DNA of 64,000 nucleotides from Acidobacteriota bacterium (GCA_040005235.1 JBDTZG010000010.1:1-64000); one strand, 5' to 3'. Shown: positions 5,388 to 16,624, numbered from the stretch's first letter. Numbers and translations: made by a program. Notes: generated from the letters alone by a model not told the origin.

Positions 5388-5488
5388 CTTCTGGGGCTCT
5401 CCTCTCGCTCAGTGTATCTCGCGCCCCCCACCCAGCCCCTTCCCGGCCCCAAGCCGCGCTGATACACTCCAAACAATCCGAAGATTCG

Positions 5489-6127
5489 ATGATGGACTCC
5501 AAAGAGTTGCAGGCGATTCTCCAACGGGCGCTCGCGGGCGACCCGGCAGCGCAATGCGAGCTGGTCGACCTGCTCACCCCGGTTATCCAGAAGCGGGTCG
5601 CCCGCGCGCTGCTGAAGTACTGCCAGGGTCCTTCGGGTGCGCGCAACGTTCACCAGGAGGCGGGGGATCTTACCCAGGAGGTCTTCTTCTACCTGTTAGC
5701 CAAGGATGCGCGCGTGCTGCGCCGGTGGGACCCGGAGCTCGGTCTGTCGCTCCTGAATTTCGTCGGCTTGGTGGCAGAGCGGCGTGCCTTGTGGATCCTG
5801 CGCGGCAGGCTGAGCCCCTGGATCGACGAACCGACGTTGATCGAAGAGCTGCCGGACCAGCCGTACAGCGGCGACAATCCGGAGCGGGCAGCGTCCTCAC
5901 GCGAGATCCTGCGGCTGCTGCTCGATCAGTTAAAAGATCGCCTCTCTGCCGAGGGTTGGCACATGTTCGACCTGCTCTTCCGGCAGGAGCTGTCGCCAGC
6001 AGAGGTCGCCCAAAGAACCGGCAAGAGCCTGGCCGCGGTCTACAAATGGCAGAGCCGGTTGAGCCAGTTAGCGCGTCGTATTCTCGCCGAGTTGTCGAAT
6101 TCGGACGGAGAACCGCAAAATCCCTGA
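5489..6127 (+). CDS. ECF-type RNA polymerase sigma-70 factor
   Basis: Region 2 DLTQEVF and region 4 HTH LSPAEVAQRTGKSLAAVYKWQSRL. Confidence 0.88.
   Translation: MMDSKELQAILQRALAGDPAAQCELVDLLTPVIQKRVARALLKYCQGPSGARNVHQEAGDLTQEVFFYLLAKDARVLRRWDPELGLSLLNFVGLVAERRALWILRGRLSPWIDEPTLIEELPDQPYSGDNPERAASSREILRLLLDQLKDRLSAEGWHMFDLLFRQELSPAEVAQRTGKSLAAVYKWQSRLSQLARRILAELSNSDGEPQNP
6092..6123 (+). promoter_or_regulatory. Candidate ECF promoter, copy 1 (inside the sigma 3' end, upstream of the anti-sigma gene)
   Basis: TTGTCGA-16 nt-GCAAAATCC, same spacing as the three other copies. Confidence 0.7.
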
Positions 6128-6128
6128 C

Positions 6129-6929
6129 ATGAGAGAACGACCGACGATGGATGACACAGGACTCCTACGCGATCTGGCCCGCGCCGCCCGTGAAGAAGAG
6201 GCGGAAGAGCGCGACCTTTGGGATCGCTGGGACCGCCTGACCGACGGCACGCTGTCGCCGGAAGAGGAAGCCGAGCTCCGAGCGTTGGCCCAAAGCTCTC
6301 CCGAAGCGGAGCAGGCCTACGAGGCGTTTCGCCCGCTTTCCCCGGAGTTCCGCGCCAAAATGGTGGCCGAGATCGGGCCGATGATCCGACCGTCTCTGTT
6401 CATCCGCTGGCGCGACGCCTTCATCCGTTGGCGCGACGCACACCTCGTCGTGTGGCGTGCCGCCTATTCCGGATCGGGGCTCGCGTCAGCGGCGGCGGCG
6501 CTGTACTTCATGGTGTCGCTTCCTGCCGTGCCGTTGTTCGTGGTCGAACTCGAGCCGGTCTTGGCTATTCGCGGCGATTCGACGGTCTTCACACCGGGCG
6601 GAGGGTTCAAAGCGACGGTCTGGCCGGAAAAAGAGACTTCATCCCGGTCCCAGATCAACCTCCGGTGCTACATCGAATCCAAATCTCCCGCGGCCAAACC
6701 GCTTCGCGCAATTCAATGCGTCGTCGCCGAGCGCTTGAAAACGGGCTGGATGTCGATCCAAGGGCGCCTTCCCAAAGACCAATCGATCGGACCCTCGACG
6801 CTCTGGCTCGTCTTCGCCTACTCCGGCAATCAACCCGACTTGGACGAGGTCGGAAAAGTCGCGAAAACGCACACCAAAAGCCGAGATTGGAAGGCTGTAC
6901 CGAGTCCGATGGAAATCCGGGCGCCATGA
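6129..6929 (+). CDS. Putative membrane-bound anti-sigma factor
   Basis: Starts 1 nt after the sigma stop. Helical N-terminus with GTLSPEEEAELR (anti-sigma-like), one hydrophobic segment (LASAAAALYFMVSL), then a beta-rich C-terminal domain. Alternative start at 6147. Confidence 0.65.
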   Translation: MRERPTMDDTGLLRDLARAAREEEAEERDLWDRWDRLTDGTLSPEEEAELRALAQSSPEAEQAYEAFRPLSPEFRAKMVAEIGPMIRPSLFIRWRDAFIRWRDAHLVVWRAAYSGSGLASAAAALYFMVSLPAVPLFVVELEPVLAIRGDSTVFTPGGGFKATVWPEKETSSRSQINLRCYIESKSPAAKPLRAIQCVVAERLKTGWMSIQGRLPKDQSIGPSTLWLVFAYSGNQPDLDEVGKVAKTHTKSRDWKAVPSPMEIRAP

Positions 6930-6933
6930 TGCG

Positions 6934-9519
6934 ATGACCCCGCGCCGCATCCTGCTCGTCGGCTTGATCATTTTAACTCTGGCGGCAGCCCTGCCTAGCG
7001 GCTGCGGGACTCCAGCTCCAGCTCCAGCTCCCCCGCCTTCCTATCTCAGCGTCGAGTTTACCGGCTGCTTGGCCACCGCATCTCCGGGGTCCGTCTGCAT
7101 CCTCGACAAAACGCGACGCCTCACCCTTTGGGTGCCAGAGTCCATCGAGTCGGAAATCAAGATCCGTTCCGGAGGTTGCAACCTTGAGGGGGAAGGGGAG
7201 CCCAGCGACGAAGGAGTACGGTACATCGTCACGATTCCCAAAGGGGCGGAGCGGATCGAGGTCGTCCGAACAAGTCAAGTAGGCGGAGAGGCGCGCTGGA
7301 CCCTCGCCGTCGCGGGACCGCGTCCCCTCAAGAAGGGGGAGAACGATGTTCAAGGCGAAATCAACCGAATTACAGCCATGCTTTGGAAATCGATTCAAGA
7401 CCTTCGATTCGCGGAAGTACATTCCGGCTTGGACCGCCTTGATCGACTCGCCCAGGAGACGAGGCTCCCCTCCATCTCGCGATACTACCTGGCCTATTAC
7501 AAAGGTTTGCTCGCGGGCAAGGAGGAAGACTACCGCCAGGCCCTCTCCGAGTTGACACGCGCTGGAACGATCGCTCGACAGGTGAATCTACTGAGGGAGG
7601 CCTGGGTCGCCGACGAAGCTCTTGCGCTTCGTTGGACCGAGCTGGGCCGGGCCAAAGAAGTTTCGGAGGTATATGAACGCCTGTCAAAGTCACCCGCCGC
7701 CAAGGACGGCTGTGAACGCGGCCAGCTCCTGATCAACTGGGCCTGGGCCACCTTGCTCGCGCGAGAAGCTGGAGGATTTCCCGTTGCCGGGCTGGCAGAG
7801 CCTTTGCCTCTCCTTGACAGGGCTTCGAAGGAGCTGCGCGCGGAGACGAAATGCACATCGAGCCTCTACTACGATCTGCATTTCAATCGGGCGCTCGCCG
7901 AGCTCCAAGCCGATCGCCCCAAGCTCGCGGCCGAGGCACTCGCAAACGCAAGCGCCTTCGACGAAGGGACCACCTTTTTTCAAACTCTCTGGGAGCTCGA
8001 CCTCGAAGCGCGGCTGGAAATCGAGCGTGGCGCCTCTCGTCGAGCCCTCGAAATCTATCGGCAACTGGAAGTTCAGGCTCGCCACGCGGGCTCTCCCGAT
8101 GGTCAGTTGCGCGCCGCGGTGGGAAAGGCAAAGGCAAAGGCCGCACTCGGAGACAGCGAAACGGCCTTGAGCCTCCTTGCCCACGCGGAAGACTTGCTCA
8201 ACCGCGAGAGCCTGCAGATTCCGCTTCACGAAGGGCGGGAGACCTTCGTATCGCAACGGGAGGGAGTGGAAAGCCTGGAGATCGGGCTCCTTCTAGAATC
8301 GGGAAGGAACGCCGACGCCCTTGCCGCCGCGCGTCGAGCCCGAACCCGATTCCTGATTCAGCTCGCCTCCGCGGAGCGCGTGGCGGGCCTATCGCCCTCC
8401 GATCGAAACGTTTGGAGTCGGGCGATCAACAGCTATCAGACAAAGCGCGGCCAAGCCGATGAAATGGCGCGCAACGAACGCTTCCTTTTCGCCTCTCAAC
8501 TCGGCCCCAACCGAGCCGCGCAGAAGGCCCTGGTCGCTGAGGGCGAGCATGACCTCGAGCAGGCGTTCGCACTTCTCGGTGATCTACCTCAGCGTCAGAC
8601 GCCCTCTCCTCCTCGGCCAGGCGAGCTGTTGCTGGCTTTCCACCCGATCCAAAACGGCTGGGTCGCATTCTCCTCGGATGGCAAGAGAGTCGCGTCGAAC
8701 GCTTTCGATCTGACGCCGGCTCTCCTCCAGAATCCCGCCGCGCTGTCCAAGGAGGTGCTCGCACCTTTCCACGATGCGATCCTCCGAGCCAAACGCATCC
8801 GTATCCTGCCGTACGGCGCGCTTCGTGAAATCGATTTCCACGCCTTGCCTTTCGACGGCGACGTCCTCCTCGCAGCACGGCCCGTGGTTTACGGCCTCGA
8901 CCTTGCCGCGCCGCGCCGCGCACAGTCCCGCGGCGCGCCGAAGCGAAAAATGGCCCTGCTGGTCGACGATCCCAACGACAACCTCCCCGCTGCACGGCGC
9001 GAGGCCGAAATAACCGCCCAAGCGATCGGACGCTGGAAGCGACCTTGGGATGTAGTCCGGCTCACCTCTACAGGCGCCACCAGCGAGGCGATCTGGAAAA
9101 ACCTCGCCAAGGCGGACCTTTTTCATTTTTCGGGACACGGCACGTTCGGTGGAATCGGCGGTTGGGAAAGCGGCCTCCGAGTCGCCGACAAGGGAGAATT
9201 GACCGTCGGCCAGCTACTCGTAGTCCCCCGATCGCCTCGCTGGATCGTGCTCTCGGGATGCGATACGGCGCGGGCGGCAACGGATACCCGGATCGAGGGA
9301 TTCGGCCTCGCGAACGCCCTGGTTCTTGCCGGAGCAGAAAGCGTGATCGCTTCCGTGCGGCCCGTGGTGGATCGAACCGCCCCCTCATTATTTGGCCACC
9401 TCTACGGCGATTGGGACGGTGAAAGCGATCTGGCCGAAGCTCTCCAGCAGGCCCAGCTCGCCTGGAGGCGGGAGATGCCGAACGTCGACTGGCAGAGCTT
9501 CCGGATCATCGAGCCGTAA
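6934..9519 (+). CDS. TPR-CHAT (caspase-like peptidase) protein, probable lipoprotein
   Basis: Signal peptide with LPSGC lipobox-like motif and a helical TPR-like middle. CHAT motifs LREIDFHAL, NLPAARREA, FHFSGHG (His), VLSGCDT (Cys), GLANALVLAGA..VIAS and WQSF. Confidence 0.9.
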   Translation: MTPRRILLVGLIILTLAAALPSGCGTPAPAPAPPPSYLSVEFTGCLATASPGSVCILDKTRRLTLWVPESIESEIKIRSGGCNLEGEGEPSDEGVRYIVTIPKGAERIEVVRTSQVGGEARWTLAVAGPRPLKKGENDVQGEINRITAMLWKSIQDLRFAEVHSGLDRLDRLAQETRLPSISRYYLAYYKGLLAGKEEDYRQALSELTRAGTIARQVNLLREAWVADEALALRWTELGRAKEVSEVYERLSKSPAAKDGCERGQLLINWAWATLLAREAGGFPVAGLAEPLPLLDRASKELRAETKCTSSLYYDLHFNRALAELQADRPKLAAEALANASAFDEGTTFFQTLWELDLEARLEIERGASRRALEIYRQLEVQARHAGSPDGQLRAAVGKAKAKAALGDSETALSLLAHAEDLLNRESLQIPLHEGRETFVSQREGVESLEIGLLLESGRNADALAAARRARTRFLIQLASAERVAGLSPSDRNVWSRAINSYQTKRGQADEMARNERFLFASQLGPNRAAQKALVAEGEHDLEQAFALLGDLPQRQTPSPPRPGELLLAFHPIQNGWVAFSSDGKRVASNAFDLTPALLQNPAALSKEVLAPFHDAILRAKRIRILPYGALREIDFHALPFDGDVLLAARPVVYGLDLAAPRRAQSRGAPKRKMALLVDDPNDNLPAARREAEITAQAIGRWKRPWDVVRLTSTGATSEAIWKNLAKADLFHFSGHGTFGGIGGWESGLRVADKGELTVGQLLVVPRSPRWIVLSGCDTARAATDTRIEGFGLANALVLAGAESVIASVRPVVDRTAPSLFGHLYGDWDGESDLAEALQQAQLAWRREMPNVDWQSFRIIEP

Positions 9520-9544: not shown

Positions 9545-9576
9545 TTGTCAAATTCAGACAGTTGGCGGCAAAAGCC
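9545..9576 (+). promoter_or_regulatory. Candidate ECF promoter, copy 2 (upstream of the S8 protease)
   Basis: TTGTCAA-16 nt-GCAAAAGCC, followed by a GAGGAG RBS. Confidence 0.72.
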
Positions 9577-9599: not shown

Positions 9600-11729
9600 A
9601 TGAGATCCATCATGAAACGCCGGTCACGTTGGTTGAGTTGGTCGTTCGCAGTCGCAATTCTGTGCGCAGGCTGCCAGATTCGTCCCCAAACCCCCGTCGA
9701 TGTTCAAACCGCCGTCAAGCAGTCTTATCCAGCCTGGTCGTTCATCGGCCTCAAGAGCAACCCCGACAAACAATGCCCCGGGATTGATGAGAAAAACTGG
9801 GAGGTCCACGAGCTCTTCGAAAAGCCTGGCCAGGCTTTGGGGAAGGCCGAAGCGCCTCTGAGAGAAGCCGAGGAATCCCTCACGGCTGGTAGTCGTTCCA
9901 AAATTGCGATACCCGATCCATTCGGACACACCAACCGAACCTTGGAACAGGTCCGAACGGACATGAAGCGATTCTGCCTCTATCGCTGGATCGGCGCTGA
10001 GGGGAAGGCACGCATTCCAATCGGATCGATCGCTGACCTGGCCCGGCTCGACGCCGATCCGATGGCTTTGGCCACATCCGCCGAGCCGGCGCTCGCTCGG
10101 GTCCTTCAGCCCCGTCTTTCAGATCATTTTTTCCGCGAGGTCGGCCGCACCGGAATCTCGCTGCCGATCGACGAGAAGGCGCCGAAGGTTCGTCTGGCGT
10201 TCCTTGACAACTTCCCGACGACCCCCGATGGAGATGGCCCTCCCGCCGACGTGGAGGAGTCCCCTCCCGCCGTAGGATGCCCCTCCAATCATGGAGATTT
10301 CCTACGTCTCCTCGGGCGGGCAATGACCTGCGAGGATCAAGGTTGCGCAGCCGAGATCCGTAGCCGCCTCGCGTTGGCCTATCGAAAGTTCGATCCGACC
10401 AGCGGATTCCTTTCGAAGCGCAGTACCGAATGCGGTGGGTATTTCGGCAACCTGGAGGACCTGGCACAGGCCATCCGGGAAGAGGTCCAGGACTGGCAGA
10501 AAGCAAACGCCCAGCAAGAGAAACCGAGTCCGCTCGTCTTAAATCTTTCGCTCGGCTGGGATGGTCGCCTATTCGGCGGCATCACCCAGAACGGGGATAA
10601 TGTTCCTTTCTGCAAACTCCCCGCGGGGCAACGAGCCGTTTACGACGCGCTGGACGAAGCTCACATCCTTGGGGTGCTGGTTTTCGCAGCGACCGGCAAT
10701 GACAGGGGAGGCCCGGTGCCGCTGGAAGGCCCTCTTTTGCCAGCCGCTTGGGAGCGGACGACGCCGGGAGAGGCCGAGGCCTGCGAGGGGGTGCAACGAG
10801 ACTACCCGTTGGTCTACGCCGTTGGCGGTCTGCGATCCGACGACCAGCCCTTGGCCAATGCCCAGCGACCCGGCGCTATGCCGAGCCTCGCCGCGTACGG
10901 CGACCATGCCGCCCTGGGCGCCTCAGGTCCCTATTGGCCGACCGGAACCTACACCGGAACTTCCGTCGCCACCGCGATCGTCTCTTCGACCGCCGCGGTG
11001 ATCTGGCATGCCAATCCCACCAAGAGCGCGGAGCAGGTGGTAAAGATACTCCGCAGCACACTTCCCGTCTCAGGGCTCCAGGCTGGCTTTGGGTTTTCAC
11101 CGACCGGCGCGCTCGCCGGACCGAATTCGGTTTGGCGAGTGTCCCTCTGCTCGTCACTCGCAATGGCCGGTAATTCGCTGGGCACCTGCTGCGCGCCTCA
11201 AAAACCCAGGCCGCCGCAACTCTCCCACCTGCTCAATCTGCCGCCGGGAGAGGCTTGGCCAGCCCTCACTCCGCGGGAGATTCCGAAGTGCAAAGGCCCA
11301 AACTCCACCGAGCCAGTAAATCCAGCGCCCGATGTCGACGTTTACTGTCCTTCAGACGCATTGCTCGACATCGGATCGATCCCGGCCGCTCATCCGCAGC
11401 CTGGAAACGACCCTTGCCCCAACTGCGCTGATCCTCCCCGCAGGGCGTTGGCGTTACTGACCCCGACCACGGAGCATGTTCTCTATCTCGAGATCGCACC
11501 CAACTGGCCCGAGGATCGAGAATTGCTTTCCGCGACGTTCGAGACCAATACTGCAGATCACTCGTCCTACTTCATCAAAGGTCCTTTCCTCCGGGGAGCG
11601 GCTCGCGAAGTGGTCCTGCCGGGAAGTATCTTCCCCTTCAATTCGGATACGAAGGCAATGATCAGCTGGAGAGTTCTGATTGATGGTGTTTCTTACTCCT
11701 TGCGAACTCCCGTGTTCATCGCGAACTGA
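9600..11729 (+). CDS. S8 subtilisin-like serine protease, probable lipoprotein, Cys-rich
   Basis: Lipobox-like CAGC. Catalytic LAFLD, NHG and GTSVATAIVS motifs, VLNLSLGW, and oxyanion AATGN. Alternative start at 9612. Confidence 0.85.
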   Translation: MRSIMKRRSRWLSWSFAVAILCAGCQIRPQTPVDVQTAVKQSYPAWSFIGLKSNPDKQCPGIDEKNWEVHELFEKPGQALGKAEAPLREAEESLTAGSRSKIAIPDPFGHTNRTLEQVRTDMKRFCLYRWIGAEGKARIPIGSIADLARLDADPMALATSAEPALARVLQPRLSDHFFREVGRTGISLPIDEKAPKVRLAFLDNFPTTPDGDGPPADVEESPPAVGCPSNHGDFLRLLGRAMTCEDQGCAAEIRSRLALAYRKFDPTSGFLSKRSTECGGYFGNLEDLAQAIREEVQDWQKANAQQEKPSPLVLNLSLGWDGRLFGGITQNGDNVPFCKLPAGQRAVYDALDEAHILGVLVFAATGNDRGGPVPLEGPLLPAAWERTTPGEAEACEGVQRDYPLVYAVGGLRSDDQPLANAQRPGAMPSLAAYGDHAALGASGPYWPTGTYTGTSVATAIVSSTAAVIWHANPTKSAEQVVKILRSTLPVSGLQAGFGFSPTGALAGPNSVWRVSLCSSLAMAGNSLGTCCAPQKPRPPQLSHLLNLPPGEAWPALTPREIPKCKGPNSTEPVNPAPDVDVYCPSDALLDIGSIPAAHPQPGNDPCPNCADPPRRALALLTPTTEHVLYLEIAPNWPEDRELLSATFETNTADHSSYFIKGPFLRGAAREVVLPGSIFPFNSDTKAMISWRVLIDGVSYSLRTPVFIAN

Positions 11730-11820: not shown

Positions 11821-11852
11821 TTGTCAAGAAATTCTCATGCGCAGCAAACACC
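11821..11852 (+). promoter_or_regulatory. Candidate ECF promoter, copy 3 (upstream of the small-protein pair)
   Basis: TTGTCAA-16 nt-GCAAACACC. Confidence 0.72.
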
Positions 11853-11987: not shown

Positions 11988-12239
11988 ATGGCGTTCAACA
12001 ATGTTGGGTTTGGAACGATCGCGCCTGGAACAAGTCAACGCTGGTTCTATTCCTTCGGCGGCACGGATCACGGAGCGCAGTACTGCATGGCCAATCCGCT
12101 GAATCCCGGGGCCTGCCTTCAGGTGAACGATCAGACCAAGTGCAAGAACAGCGACGGTACCATCACCTACTGGGTCACCATCCGAAACATCGGCAGCTTC
12201 ACGACCAACTTCAACATTCAAGGCGGCGGTCTGTCTTGA
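11988..12239 (+). CDS. Small (83 aa) beta-rich hypothetical protein
   Basis: AAGGAG RBS and ATG. Gly/Asn/Thr/aromatic-rich, 3 Cys, ends QGGGLS, no signal peptide. Confidence 0.8.
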   Translation: MAFNNVGFGTIAPGTSQRWFYSFGGTDHGAQYCMANPLNPGACLQVNDQTKCKNSDGTITYWVTIRNIGSFTTNFNIQGGGLS

Positions 12240-12625: not shown

Positions 12626-12657
12626 TTGTCAAACATTCCTCGCCCCAAGCAAACACC
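12626..12657 (+). promoter_or_regulatory. Candidate ECF promoter, copy 4 (upstream of the metalloprotease)
   Basis: TTGTCAA-16 nt-GCAAACACC. Confidence 0.72.
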
Positions 12658-14809: not shown

Positions 14810-14889
14810 AACCGTAGAGGCGAGTATGCTTCCGCGGGCCGGGTTCCGTGCCCGGCCTGCGGTTTTCCCCTGGAGAAGAGAGGTTTACC

Positions 14890-15183
14890 ATGCGTCTAAA
14901 CGTCAAGTTGCGCGACGGTTTCCTGAACGATACGGTCATCGCCACCGTGAACGGCAAAGAGGTTTTTCAAAAAGCCGGAGTGCAGACCGACCTTTCCCTC
15001 TCGTTCGCGGATGGTTTCGAGATCGAGGTCGAAGATCCGGAGGTCGAGCTGGGAGTCGCCGTAGCGGGCGGACCGCGGGCGACGCGGAAGGTTCGGCTGG
15101 CCGAGACACCGTTCGTGGAGGTCAGTAAGAACGCCGGGGATCTGGAGATCCGCGCCTCGGCGGAAGAGGTTCCGATGATGTGA
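14890..15183 (+). CDS. Small acidic beta-rich hypothetical protein
   Basis: GAGAGG RBS, 97 aa, directly downstream of the metalloprotease. Confidence 0.7.
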   Translation: MRLNVKLRDGFLNDTVIATVNGKEVFQKAGVQTDLSLSFADGFEIEVEDPEVELGVAVAGGPRATRKVRLAETPFVEVSKNAGDLEIRASAEEVPMM

Positions 15184-15235
15184 GCCGTTTCGGCTCGTTG
15201 CGTCCGTCTCTTGATAGAGGGGAGGGAAAGTTCTC

Positions 15236-16624
15236 ATGACACCCAGAAACCACTTCACCTGGCCGCCGCCCGGCGACGAGGACAAGCAGTTCCATAACGA
15301 GGTCGCGGCGCCTGCGGTGATCTTGCAGGCGCTCGGGGCGGACATCACAGTTAACCCGCCGCGCGAAAACCTCGCGCAGGCGCGGCTCGCTTCGCGGCCG
15401 AAGTCGTTGGCAGAGTGGCTCGAGACGAAAGATTCCGACGGTTCCGGCCTGGCGTTGGGCGGCGGCCGAAGCTGGAATCATCCGCAACTCTTAATGGCGG
15501 CGCGCGGCCTGGTGCTCGGCGATTGGGGCGACGCGGGCAAGCTGATGGCGATGCAGGCGGGGCGAATCCCCGGCGATGGGATGGAGGCATTTCTCGACGG
15601 CGAGGAGCCGCGGAGCACCGATTACGATCCGTACCGCTGGGCGGCCGGGCTGATCTTTGCGAGCGACAAAGCGCCGGCCGAAATCCGGGAGGATGCGCGG
15701 ACGGTGCTGCGGCGCCAGATGGGCCTGGCTCTCCTCGGTGCGGTCGCCTGGACCGACGAAGGGGACGAGTTCCGCAATGCCAAGGGCGCGCCTTACTATC
15801 GGGGCCCCACGCTTTCGCCGGTTGGCGAACGATCGCCGAAGACTTCGAATCCAGACCTGCTCGGTCTGTTTTGCCGCCTCGTCCTGGGCCGTGACGACCT
15901 TTGTGATCGCGACGGGTGGGCCTGCACGGTAGCCGACCTCGTCGGCATCGAGGCGCTCTTTTCGCCGCTCGATCTCGAGACGATCCACATGCCGAACCCG
16001 GCCCTCAAGTTGATCGACGACGCGAAAGTGCACGGGGAGTTCCGGTTCGTCGAGTACCCGGAAGGGCGCCTGGTGATGCGCCCGAACCAGCTGAACTCGA
16101 ATACCCCTTCGGCTCTCTGGAGCTTTGCCGACCATGTGACGAAGCGGCAGGTGCGCGGCTTCCCGTTCGATCCGAGCCGGAAGAACCGCGGCGCAGGCGC
16201 CCCCAGGTCGGTGGGATGCACGATCGAGGACGGCGAAGTCGTCGCGCGGAGCACCGACCCGCAATTCACCGCGCGGTTCAAGCTCCCGACGTCCGAGCCG
16301 CTTTGGACGGTCGTGATCGACGGCAACGGCGCCCGATTCGAAACCGGCGTCGGAACGCCACCCGGACCGGTCACTCCTCCCCTGCCCGATTCCCCGCCGG
16401 TCGATCGGCCTCCGGTCCCCGAGATCGACATCGAGGGAATCGTCGCCCAGGTGATCGCCCTCGGCGCACAGGACGACCAGACCGATCCGGCCGTGGCACT
16501 CGTGAGGGCCGAGGATTGGCAGGCGGCGAGCGCAGCCATCGGCGGCATGTTGGTGCCGAAAAAACGGATACCCGTCCGGGACGCCCTCGCCAAGCGGCTG
16601 GCGGATCTGGCGGAGGACGACTAG
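15236..16624 (+). CDS. Hypothetical protein with Pro-rich linker and short helical C-terminal domain
   Basis: 462-codon ORF with GGAGG RBS and GC-rich third positions. No motif recognised. Confidence 0.75.
   Translation: MTPRNHFTWPPPGDEDKQFHNEVAAPAVILQALGADITVNPPRENLAQARLASRPKSLAEWLETKDSDGSGLALGGGRSWNHPQLLMAARGLVLGDWGDAGKLMAMQAGRIPGDGMEAFLDGEEPRSTDYDPYRWAAGLIFASDKAPAEIREDARTVLRRQMGLALLGAVAWTDEGDEFRNAKGAPYYRGPTLSPVGERSPKTSNPDLLGLFCRLVLGRDDLCDRDGWACTVADLVGIEALFSPLDLETIHMPNPALKLIDDAKVHGEFRFVEYPEGRLVMRPNQLNSNTPSALWSFADHVTKRQVRGFPFDPSRKNRGAGAPRSVGCTIEDGEVVARSTDPQFTARFKLPTSEPLWTVVIDGNGARFETGVGTPPGPVTPPLPDSPPVDRPPVPEIDIEGIVAQVIALGAQDDQTDPAVALVRAEDWQAASAAIGGMLVPKKRIPVRDALAKRLADLAEDD

Follow-up and report, generated by a model that had tools for sequence, protein, structure and literature searches.

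DdvA of Myxococcus xanthus is a zinc-binding anti-sigma factor fused to a periplasmic tetratricopeptide repeat (TPR)-CHAT part, and its authors propose that CHAT acts as the first protease, followed by RseP; DdvA that lacks its outer domain is an RseP substrate (both PMC11506125). For the ECF54 group of extracytoplasmic function (ECF) sigma factors, regulation by co-encoded proteases is an untested proposal (PMC7826278, PMC8999054), and in the Craspase system Csx30 is bound via the C-terminal domain, a small loop of which is cut (PMC10028731, 10.1101/2022.08.17.504292). Here we analyse a cassette on the + strand of a 64,000-nt stretch of an Acidobacteriota genome (G000:C104:1-64000, the window), in which an ECF sigma factor, a candidate membrane anti-sigma factor, an exported TPR-CHAT protease and a subtilase are encoded one after the other. 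The cassette is real, conserved and undescribed in the literature searched; its design varies a known one, and its key step is hypothetical. We found no paper describing it, in a search that covered few subscription papers and part of the ECF supplement, and absence from print is not established.

A conserved four-gene cassette

The cassette comprises the following features.

5489..6127, + strand: ECF sigma factor of 212 residues (P0001), assigned by TIGR02937 and the family profile
6129..6929, + strand, conserved start probably 6147: single-pass anti-sigma candidate of 266 residues (P0002), with an N-terminal domain at about 9-82, a membrane segment at about 113-135 and an immunoglobulin (Ig)-like domain at 131-266
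6570..6572, + strand: codon of Arg148 in P0002, a candidate scissile or recognition residue, picked out by its conservation
6934..9519, + strand: predicted exported lipoprotein TPR-CHAT protease of 861 residues (P0003), with Cys24 at 7003-7005, a beta-sandwich at 41-127, TPR helices at 139-546 and CHAT at 564-861
9136-9138 and 9259-9261, + strand: CHAT dyad, His735 and Cys776, in the motifs FSGHG and LSGC
9600..11729, + strand: S8 subtilase (P0004) with a signal peptide and a probable lipoprotein Cys25 (Pfam PF00082, E 2.5e-10)

The initial annotation had described three tightly coupled genes, and the reading frames do lie 1 nt and 4 nt apart. The 1-nt gap may not be the real one, however, since the middle-protein family (114 of 119 members) conserves Met7, at 6147, as its start. 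The three genes themselves are real, but the unit has a fourth that had been overlooked: the S8 subtilase (709 residues) starts 80 bases past the end of the CHAT gene, and its catalytic residues Asp203, His231, Asn367 and Ser455 are all present in 51 of 51 subtilases.

A scan with the sigma factor confirmed 87 places, of which the best 80 were retained. These loci belong mostly to Acidobacteriota and Myxococcota, with Thermoanaerobaculia as the nearest relatives of the window. Cultured carriers include Sorangium cellulosum So ce26 and Polyangium fumosum DSM 14668 (loci L052, L068). In 77 of the 80 loci the sigma gene is followed by the middle gene. The CHAT gene is next in line in 54; in 11 it lies elsewhere in the fetched DNA, in 6 a contig end cuts it off and in 9 it is absent. 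Conservation of the triad in other genomes had been set as a test of the original claim, and it is found here for the middle gene (77/80) as well as for CHAT (65/80). Five of the nine genomes without CHAT at the locus were checked, and all five encode a relative elsewhere, four of them with E < 1e-200 along almost the entire profile and one with 3e-84. A subtilase follows in 49 of the 54 loci with an adjacent CHAT gene. Among 251 genomes of the class, 10 carry the middle gene and 8 a CHAT orthologue, and all 12 strong CHAT matches of this sample lie beside the middle gene or in frame with it (three candidates per genome were scored, and related genomes are not independent). The unit, which occurs in soil Acidobacteriota and myxobacteria, is patchily distributed yet tightly linked.

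In seven cases (L058, L061, P0085, P0102, P0148, G025 and G181) the anti-sigma and CHAT proteins are fused in frame. In the five fusions inspected (L058, L061, P0085, P0102 and P0148) no second membrane segment precedes the TPR-CHAT part, the membrane segment of P0085 scoring below the threshold of 1.6, and Arg148 is kept in the fused members. Because the split form has an export signal and the fusions have one membrane segment, the protease is placed on the outer side, beside the outer domain of the anti-sigma. A location of CHAT outside the cytoplasm is thus predicted.

The same genome holds a paralogous four-gene cassette on contig C5 (G000:C5:41771-48135), and a third related subtilase with the same promoter-like motif lies about 11 kb downstream of it (C5:59344-61500). 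The middle gene occurs in this genome at the window locus and the C5 locus only. CHAT-domain matches number 25 genome-wide, most of them in proteins of 800-1300 residues.

The sigma factor, the candidate anti-sigma and the TPR-CHAT lipoprotein

ECF sigma factors have sigma2 and sigma4 as their only domains and measure about 200 residues. The sigma factor of the window, with 212 residues, is of this size, and it narrowly passes the NCBIfam model TIGR02937 (sigma70-ECF; 43.9 bits versus a cut-off of 42.9, residues 38-192), which bears out its assignment to the ECF type. The Pfam sigma models gave no match to it, so the protein is divergent. A PDB search with the single sequence returned nothing relevant; only the profile search matched, its top match being the ECF sigma factor 9isn (E 2e-7). 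At one locus (L051:3879-8045), cysteine-rich repeats, an S8 domain, an Asp/Thr-rich stalk, a sorting-signal-like end and the sigma factor follow one another in a single frame with no stop, either through a lost stop codon or through an assembly error.

The middle protein has one hydrophobic segment. Across its family this segment reaches a Kyte-Doolittle (KD) value of 1.6 or more in 108 of 119 members, and in 106 of 119 more Lys and Arg precede it than follow it, as expected from the positive-inside bias. In a structure model (predicted local distance difference test, pLDDT, 88) residues 9-82 form four helices, one more helix lies at about 119-129, and residues 131-266 form a beta-sandwich. 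Hydrophobicity, charge bias and model thus agree with the earlier claim of one transmembrane helix and an external domain. The outer beta-sandwich is generically Ig-like (best match Z 9.5, root-mean-square deviation (rmsd) 3.4, 115 aligned residues). None of the 119 members matched a Pfam family, the family profile had no meaningful match in the PDB, and zinc ligands were not found: HxxxCxxC occurs in 0 of 119, and 116 of 119 are free of Cys over residues 1-95.

A complex prediction, which the initial annotation had proposed for the sigma factor and the N-terminus of its partner, was made with residues 7-90 of the middle protein and gave a score of 0.79 versus 0.00 for the best control. This mark is reached by 116 of 157 solved pairs and 2 of 215 mismatched pairs, and resemblance to known sigma/anti-sigma structures may account for part of the score. 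At least 90% of contacts recur between runs, and the partner pLDDT is at least 81. The modelled contacts span sigma2 (14-74) and sigma4 (138-199) and are centred on a conserved EAFRPL motif. The model supports a role of the middle protein as an anti-sigma that would grip both sigma2 and sigma4.

In the outer domain the most conserved residue is Arg148, which is Arg in 117 of 119 family members and in 77 of 78 aligned locus proteins. The residues before it vary; Gly, Ser or Ala and then a loop of varying length come after it. This pattern fits a protease cut site.

Some relatives of the middle protein are built differently. In P0109 the helical N-terminal domain is joined to a Ser/Thr protein kinase (Pfam PF00069), so this domain also serves another signalling layout. 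Stand-alone copies of the membrane segment and Ig-like domain, with no sigma-binding part, lie just upstream of the sigma gene in two loci (L026:8217-8804 and L032:8108-8743), possibly as a decoy substrate or a remnant. Atlas neighbours of the middle protein at 0.92 carry zf-HC2 in 63% or DUF4384 in 33%. PF14326 (DUF4384) was matched by 0 of 119 family members; the family profile matches one protein of the zf-HC2-membrane-DUF4384 type at E 1e-4 in a tiny set, at an hhalign probability of only 12%. A myxobacterial triad (L094:516-3209) consists of an ECF sigma, a membrane protein with DUF4384 and a Peptidase C14 caspase with a signal peptide; its middle protein has Arg-Gly shortly past the membrane segment, as in the window family, and homology between the two is not established.

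The CHAT domain of the third protein is recognized by Pfam (PF12770, residues 603-848, E 2.9e-29). The claimed dyad, His735 in FSGHG and Cys776 in LSGC, is confirmed and is kept in 66 of 66 CHAT proteins. Cys24 follows a hydrophobic leader and is kept in 47 of 52 aligned orthologues; a few have a signal peptide without Cys. The lipoprotein-type signal of the initial annotation thus stands as well, although the box of the window protein itself, PSGC, departs from the usual form at -3. Pfam sees no TPR repeats, yet the repeats annotated earlier appear both in the structure model and in the profile search. In the model (pLDDT 89.6, predicted template modelling score 0.87) a small beta-sandwich, the TPR helices and the CHAT domain can be told apart. 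Two long helices lie at 488-546 and three short ones at 595-618, which may or may not match the three-helix motif that separase and Csx29 have and the CHAT domain of DdvA lacks.

Fold searches with this model found Csx29, DdvA and separase, and gingipain was also matched. Csx29 (8eey_B) aligns with Z 30.2 over 556 residues (rmsd 13.5) and DdvA with Z 25.6, whereas the template modelling score normalized by the query is highest for DdvA (0.44 versus 0.36 or less for the others). The family profile likewise puts DdvA first (8ROT, E 6.7e-13, versus 7e-4 for Csx29) in the PDB, where a search with the single sequence found nothing relevant and only the profile search matched. Among 52 orthologues the acidic residues E690 (50/52), D813 (52/52) and D634 (51/52) are conserved. 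Asp813 was considered as the S1 Asp of separase and dropped, as it lies 37, not 41, residues past the Cys. We take it more likely to be the general Asp of CHAT domains, going by the separase motif.

A promoter-like motif, the predicted regulon and neighbouring genes

The following promoter candidates and predicted regulon members were identified.

5460..5468, + strand: candidate housekeeping promoter of the sigma gene, a sigma70-type extended -10, TGnTACACT, read from the sequence
6093..6122, + strand: promoter-like motif P1, TGTCGAATT-N13-GCAAAATC, inside the 3' end of the sigma gene, before the anti-sigma and CHAT genes
9546..9575, + strand: promoter-like motif P2, TGTCAAATT-N13-GCAAAAGC, in the gap between the CHAT and S8 genes
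11822..11851, + strand: promoter-like motif P3, before the 83-residue open reading frame (ORF), fourth match in the genome and also found in a separate motif search
11988..12239, + strand: 83-residue protein of no known family, predicted regulon member, with a ribosome-binding site and the motif upstream, no Pfam match
12627..12656, + strand: promoter-like motif P4, before the 688-residue ORF, third match in the genome
12743..14809, + strand: 688-residue protein with a HExxH-type zinc motif, HELGHCFNLLH, predicted regulon member, no Pfam match

The motif in the gap before the subtilase has the consensus TGTCAGAAA-N13-GCGAA. It exceeds 10 bits in 39 of 50 CHAT-S8 gaps, all with the same spacing, versus 1 of 250 shuffles, a count that is partly circular because the motif was learned in those gaps. 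An independent test is offered by the copy in the 3' end of the sigma gene, which is present in 46 of 79 loci versus 0-2 of 79 at other spacers and usually stands 19 nt before the anti-sigma start. This pattern test replaced an earlier control at a threshold of 8 bits, which was too loose (other spacers reached up to 17/82). Within the motif box, 41 of 62 Ser codons are the rare TCA, compared with 27 of 908 in the bodies of the sigma genes; the DNA itself is therefore under selection at the sigma 3' end.

The window sigma belongs to a seven-member clade (Shimodaira-Hasegawa-like approximate likelihood ratio test 100, quick tree) in which both motif copies read GTC(A/G)A...GCAAA; this co-variation represents one or two events and is no statistical test. 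The paralogous C5 cassette has the commoner form GTCAG...GCGAA, and the two sigma factors of this genome appear to use different promoter variants. A matrix built from 11 sites of six relatives, with the window excluded, returned as its top four matches in the 6.2-Mb genome those at 9546, 6093, 12627 and 11822, in this order. From its form, its 16-nt spacer, its placement and the co-variation we infer that the motif is the promoter of the locus sigma; ECF promoter spacers measure 14-17 nt (PMC6061681).

Across loci, extra copies of the motif precede genes downstream of the cassette. Of 34 ORFs in the predicted regulon, 14 have a Pfam family and 20 have none; seven of the 14 are protease-related (five S8, one trypsin and one fungalysin/thermolysin propeptide). 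The 688-residue protein is a probable metalloprotease by its zinc motif. One Atlas neighbour cluster carries Peptidase_M10 on 11% of its members, a lead only, and an 89% identical homologue (L007) has the same motif 86 nt upstream. After the 688-residue gene, at 14848-16624, lie ORFs of 111 and 462 residues of no known family; a close homologue of the latter sits after the subtilase in L005.

The sigma gene itself seems to be controlled in another way. A TAN(A/T)(A/C)T hexamer lies within 90 nt upstream of it in 35 of 49 loci examined versus 19% of shuffles. A generic sigma70 promoter and terminator scan found nothing above chance. Autoregulation was mostly rejected, since the motif occurs within 200 nt upstream of the sigma gene in just 3 of 80 loci (farther upstream in L058, L059 and L061). 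Two loci (L027:3210-3935 and L045:8179-9075, minus strand) have a second, divergently oriented sigma gene of the same wider family upstream, with the motif 6 nt before its start, which suggests a sigma cascade.

The locus had also been called CRISPR-free. This holds for the locus: there is no array in the window and no Cas match among its 22 scanned ORFs. It does not hold for the genome, which has cas1 with an array on C68, a type III-like cluster of repeat-associated mysterious protein (RAMP) genes with an array on C18, and several arrays in all. None of the motif matches listed lies at these cas loci. PADLOC matched 3 of 136 flanking ORFs at 1e-25, all with generic kinase or AAA domains; the ORFs were called by codon bias, at no more than 450 codons each, so that false or incomplete ones may be among them. 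In 4 of 80 loci there are array-like repeats, and in two loci (L043:2828-3100 and L055:16029-16800) regular repeats resembling CRISPR arrays lie less than 9 kb from the cassette. The flanking genes support the view that the loci have no link to CRISPR or other defence genes. Farther along the window, 34721-58563 has a lower GC content (0.51-0.63) and encodes two large serine recombinases and two TraD/TrwB-type coupling proteins; this segment is probably an integrated mobile element.

Signalling models and described systems

We propose that the cassette encodes ECF signalling across the envelope. The sigma factor would be made constitutively from its housekeeping promoter and, as modelled, kept in the grip of the N-terminal helices of the single-pass middle protein. 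The TPR-CHAT lipoprotein would dock on the Ig-like outer domain of this anti-sigma, while its TPR region would bind an extracytoplasmic protein or peptide signal. The CHAT dyad would then cut the anti-sigma loop at Arg148 and detach most of the outer domain, whereupon RseP, of which an M50 protease of this type is encoded in the genome, would cut the membrane helix and free the sigma factor. Transcription from GTC(A/G)(G/A)-N16-GC(G/A)AA promoters would follow: P1, inside the sigma 3' end, would drive the anti-sigma and CHAT genes and so provide negative feedback and reset, and other promoters would drive the subtilase and further genes, mostly exported or proteolytic. Gene order, conservation, the dyad, the fusions, the motif and Arg148 are read from the sequence, whereas the folds and the sigma/anti-sigma binding are modelled. 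We regard the part of the chain formed by sigma factor, anti-sigma and regulon as very probable; for the whole, with CHAT as first protease, we see about an even chance.

Several observations weigh against this chain. An Asp directly follows the lipoprotein Cys in only 1 of 47 lipoproteins, and under the E. coli sorting rule lipoproteins without such an Asp go to the outer membrane. The activity of the DdvA CHAT domain has never been seen, and its dyad mutants resemble the wild type in the absence of signal (PMC11506125). In separase an Asp 41 residues past the Cys binds the P1 Arg of the substrate (PMC9729208, PMC10317155), and this position is variable in the CHAT orthologues (A14, R11, P10 and N5 of 52); Csx29 cuts after Met or Leu (10.1101/2022.08.17.504292, PMC9729208). 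An Arg specificity of CHAT is not established, and Arg148 could be a structural residue, a binding residue or a subtilase site. P1 would make CHAT sigma-induced, which also fits an output or shielding role. Finally, the matrix score alone yields six matches above 20 bits versus 1-5 at other spacers; clustering and placement before genes, not score, are decisive for the motif sites.

These points bear on who cuts first. The CHAT lipoprotein might be a co-receptor or shield that sits on the outer domain via Arg148 and blocks cleavage, much as the bulky domain of DdvA keeps RseP off. Once a signal takes it away, the first cut would fall to another protease, and the catalytic activity of CHAT would be directed at itself or at a substrate outside. 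The predicted co-induction of CHAT with the anti-sigma from P1, as for a negative regulator, and the unproven Arg specificity suit such a role, as do the exposure to RseP of DdvA without its TPR-CHAT domain and the continued repression by its dyad mutants (PMC11506125). We nevertheless find this rather unlikely: the dyad is invariant (66/66), the variable-length loop after Arg148 is rich in small residues and fits a scissile loop, and the anti-sigma already has a folded outer domain of its own as a steric block. Arg148 might instead be cut by the subtilase in a positive feedback, with CHAT upstream as the factor that matures or activates it, for which SAVED-CHAT/PCaspase is a precedent of CHAT activating a second protease (10.1101/2023.06.23.546230). 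The subtilase is exported, intact in 51 of 51 cases and placed after CHAT in 49 of 54 loci. However, all fusions observed join CHAT, and none the subtilase, to the anti-sigma; loci with no subtilase in the fetched DNA (e.g. L054, L062, L064-L067) keep Arg148 and CHAT; the subtilase gene comes with a predicted sigma promoter of its own, as expected of an output gene; and its prodomain has no Arg conserved at 80% before residue 198. Cleavage by the subtilase is therefore quite improbable.

A further question is what the signalling serves. The unit might be an anti-phage sensor like DdvS/DdvA or Craspase, with defence as its output, and this would be compatible with CHAT as first protease. Both nearest structural relatives act in defence (PMC11506125, PMC10028731), and for 20 of 34 genes of the predicted regulon Pfam has no family. 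Against a defence output stand the few and generic PADLOC matches (3/136), the rarity of array-like repeats (4/80) together with the lack of a motif match at the cas loci among those listed, and the protease-related half (7/14) of the annotated regulon. A role in defence thus seems improbable.

If CHAT is the first protease, the many TPR-CHAT proteins of Acidobacteriota and Myxococcota, so far uncharacterised, would gain a physiological role, and caspase-like signalling would operate outside the cytoplasm, in control of secreted proteases instead of defence. The DdvA authors could not put their model to the test, for want of a known signal and because enzyme and substrate form a single protein. 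The window unit keeps the enzyme and its presumed substrate apart as soluble domains, and it offers Arg148 as the predicted cut residue and a predicted promoter for a reporter, which makes the model testable in vitro and in E. coli. Tentatively, and with somewhat more doubt than belief, we suggest a broad undescribed class of envelope signalling. In this class an exported caspase-like protease would be dedicated to making the first cut in a membrane anti-sigma, at a single conserved Arg in a loop of an Ig-like domain; a constitutive sigma gene would carry the promoter of its inhibitor in its 3' end, and paralogous systems within a genome would be insulated by shifted promoters. Myxobacterial sigma/DUF4384/Peptidase C14 triads such as L094 may belong to it.

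The locus had been read as a counterpart of Craspase. Of this claim the fold likeness to Csx29 remains, but the nearest precedent, DdvS/DdvA, had been overlooked, as had ECF54 and the promoter motif. Craspase (Csx29, Csx30 and CASP-sigma; PMC10028731, 10.1101/2022.08.17.504292 and PMC9729208) shares the TPR-CHAT fold, and Csx30 resembles the middle protein in having a helical sigma-binding N-terminus and a beta-rich C-terminal domain, with the cut loop of Csx30 in the latter. A profile search found no sequence homology of the anti-sigma to Csx30. Craspase is cytoplasmic and switched on by Cas7-11 and target RNA, whereas the window protease is exported, its anti-sigma spans the membrane and there is no Cas partner. 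In ECF54 (Casas-Pastor et al. 2021, PMC7826278 supplement; PMC8999054) the sigma factor is likewise encoded with a subtilase and a TPR-CHAT protein, and its -35 element shares TCAG with the window motif (GTATCAG versus TGTCAG). However, ECF54 is 100% Actinobacteria with no putative anti-sigma, a carboxypeptidase-regulatory-like domain at +1 and a -10 of CTCC, in contrast to the Acidobacteriota and Myxococcota found here, with a membrane anti-sigma candidate at +1, an exported CHAT protein and a -10 of GC(G/A)AA. With RseA/DegS/RseP (PMC11506125, PMC10028731) the cassette shares a class I-like helical domain on sigma2 and sigma4, a single membrane helix and an outer domain whose loss is predicted to come first. 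The predicted first protease differs, being a co-encoded cysteine protease of clan CD and not of the DegS or PrsW type.

DdvS/DdvA (PMC6061681, PMC11506125; PDB 8ROT, 8RW5) has in common with the window an ECF sigma, a single-pass anti-sigma and a periplasmic TPR-CHAT part with a His-Cys dyad, and the fused members of the window family share DdvA's overall layout. In DdvA, CHAT and anti-sigma form one polypeptide, whereas they are separate ORFs in the window; its anti-sigma is zinc-binding (CHCC), while the window family is zinc-free. An Ig-like domain with Arg148 and a second beta-sandwich take the place of DdvA's helical scaffold. The DdvS promoter, GTAA-n16-CGT, is unlike the window motif, and ddvS is autoregulated, whereas the sigma gene of the window family mostly has no motif of its own upstream. 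DdvS output consists of CRISPR and the cyclic oligonucleotide-based anti-phage signalling system (CBASS), as opposed to the subtilase and secreted proteins predicted here. The locus thus looks like a two-protein version of DdvS/DdvA in which the TPR-CHAT part has been split off as a lipoprotein. It would work like DdvS/DdvA but departs from it in fusion, zinc domain, promoter and regulon, and it is neither ECF54 nor Craspase.

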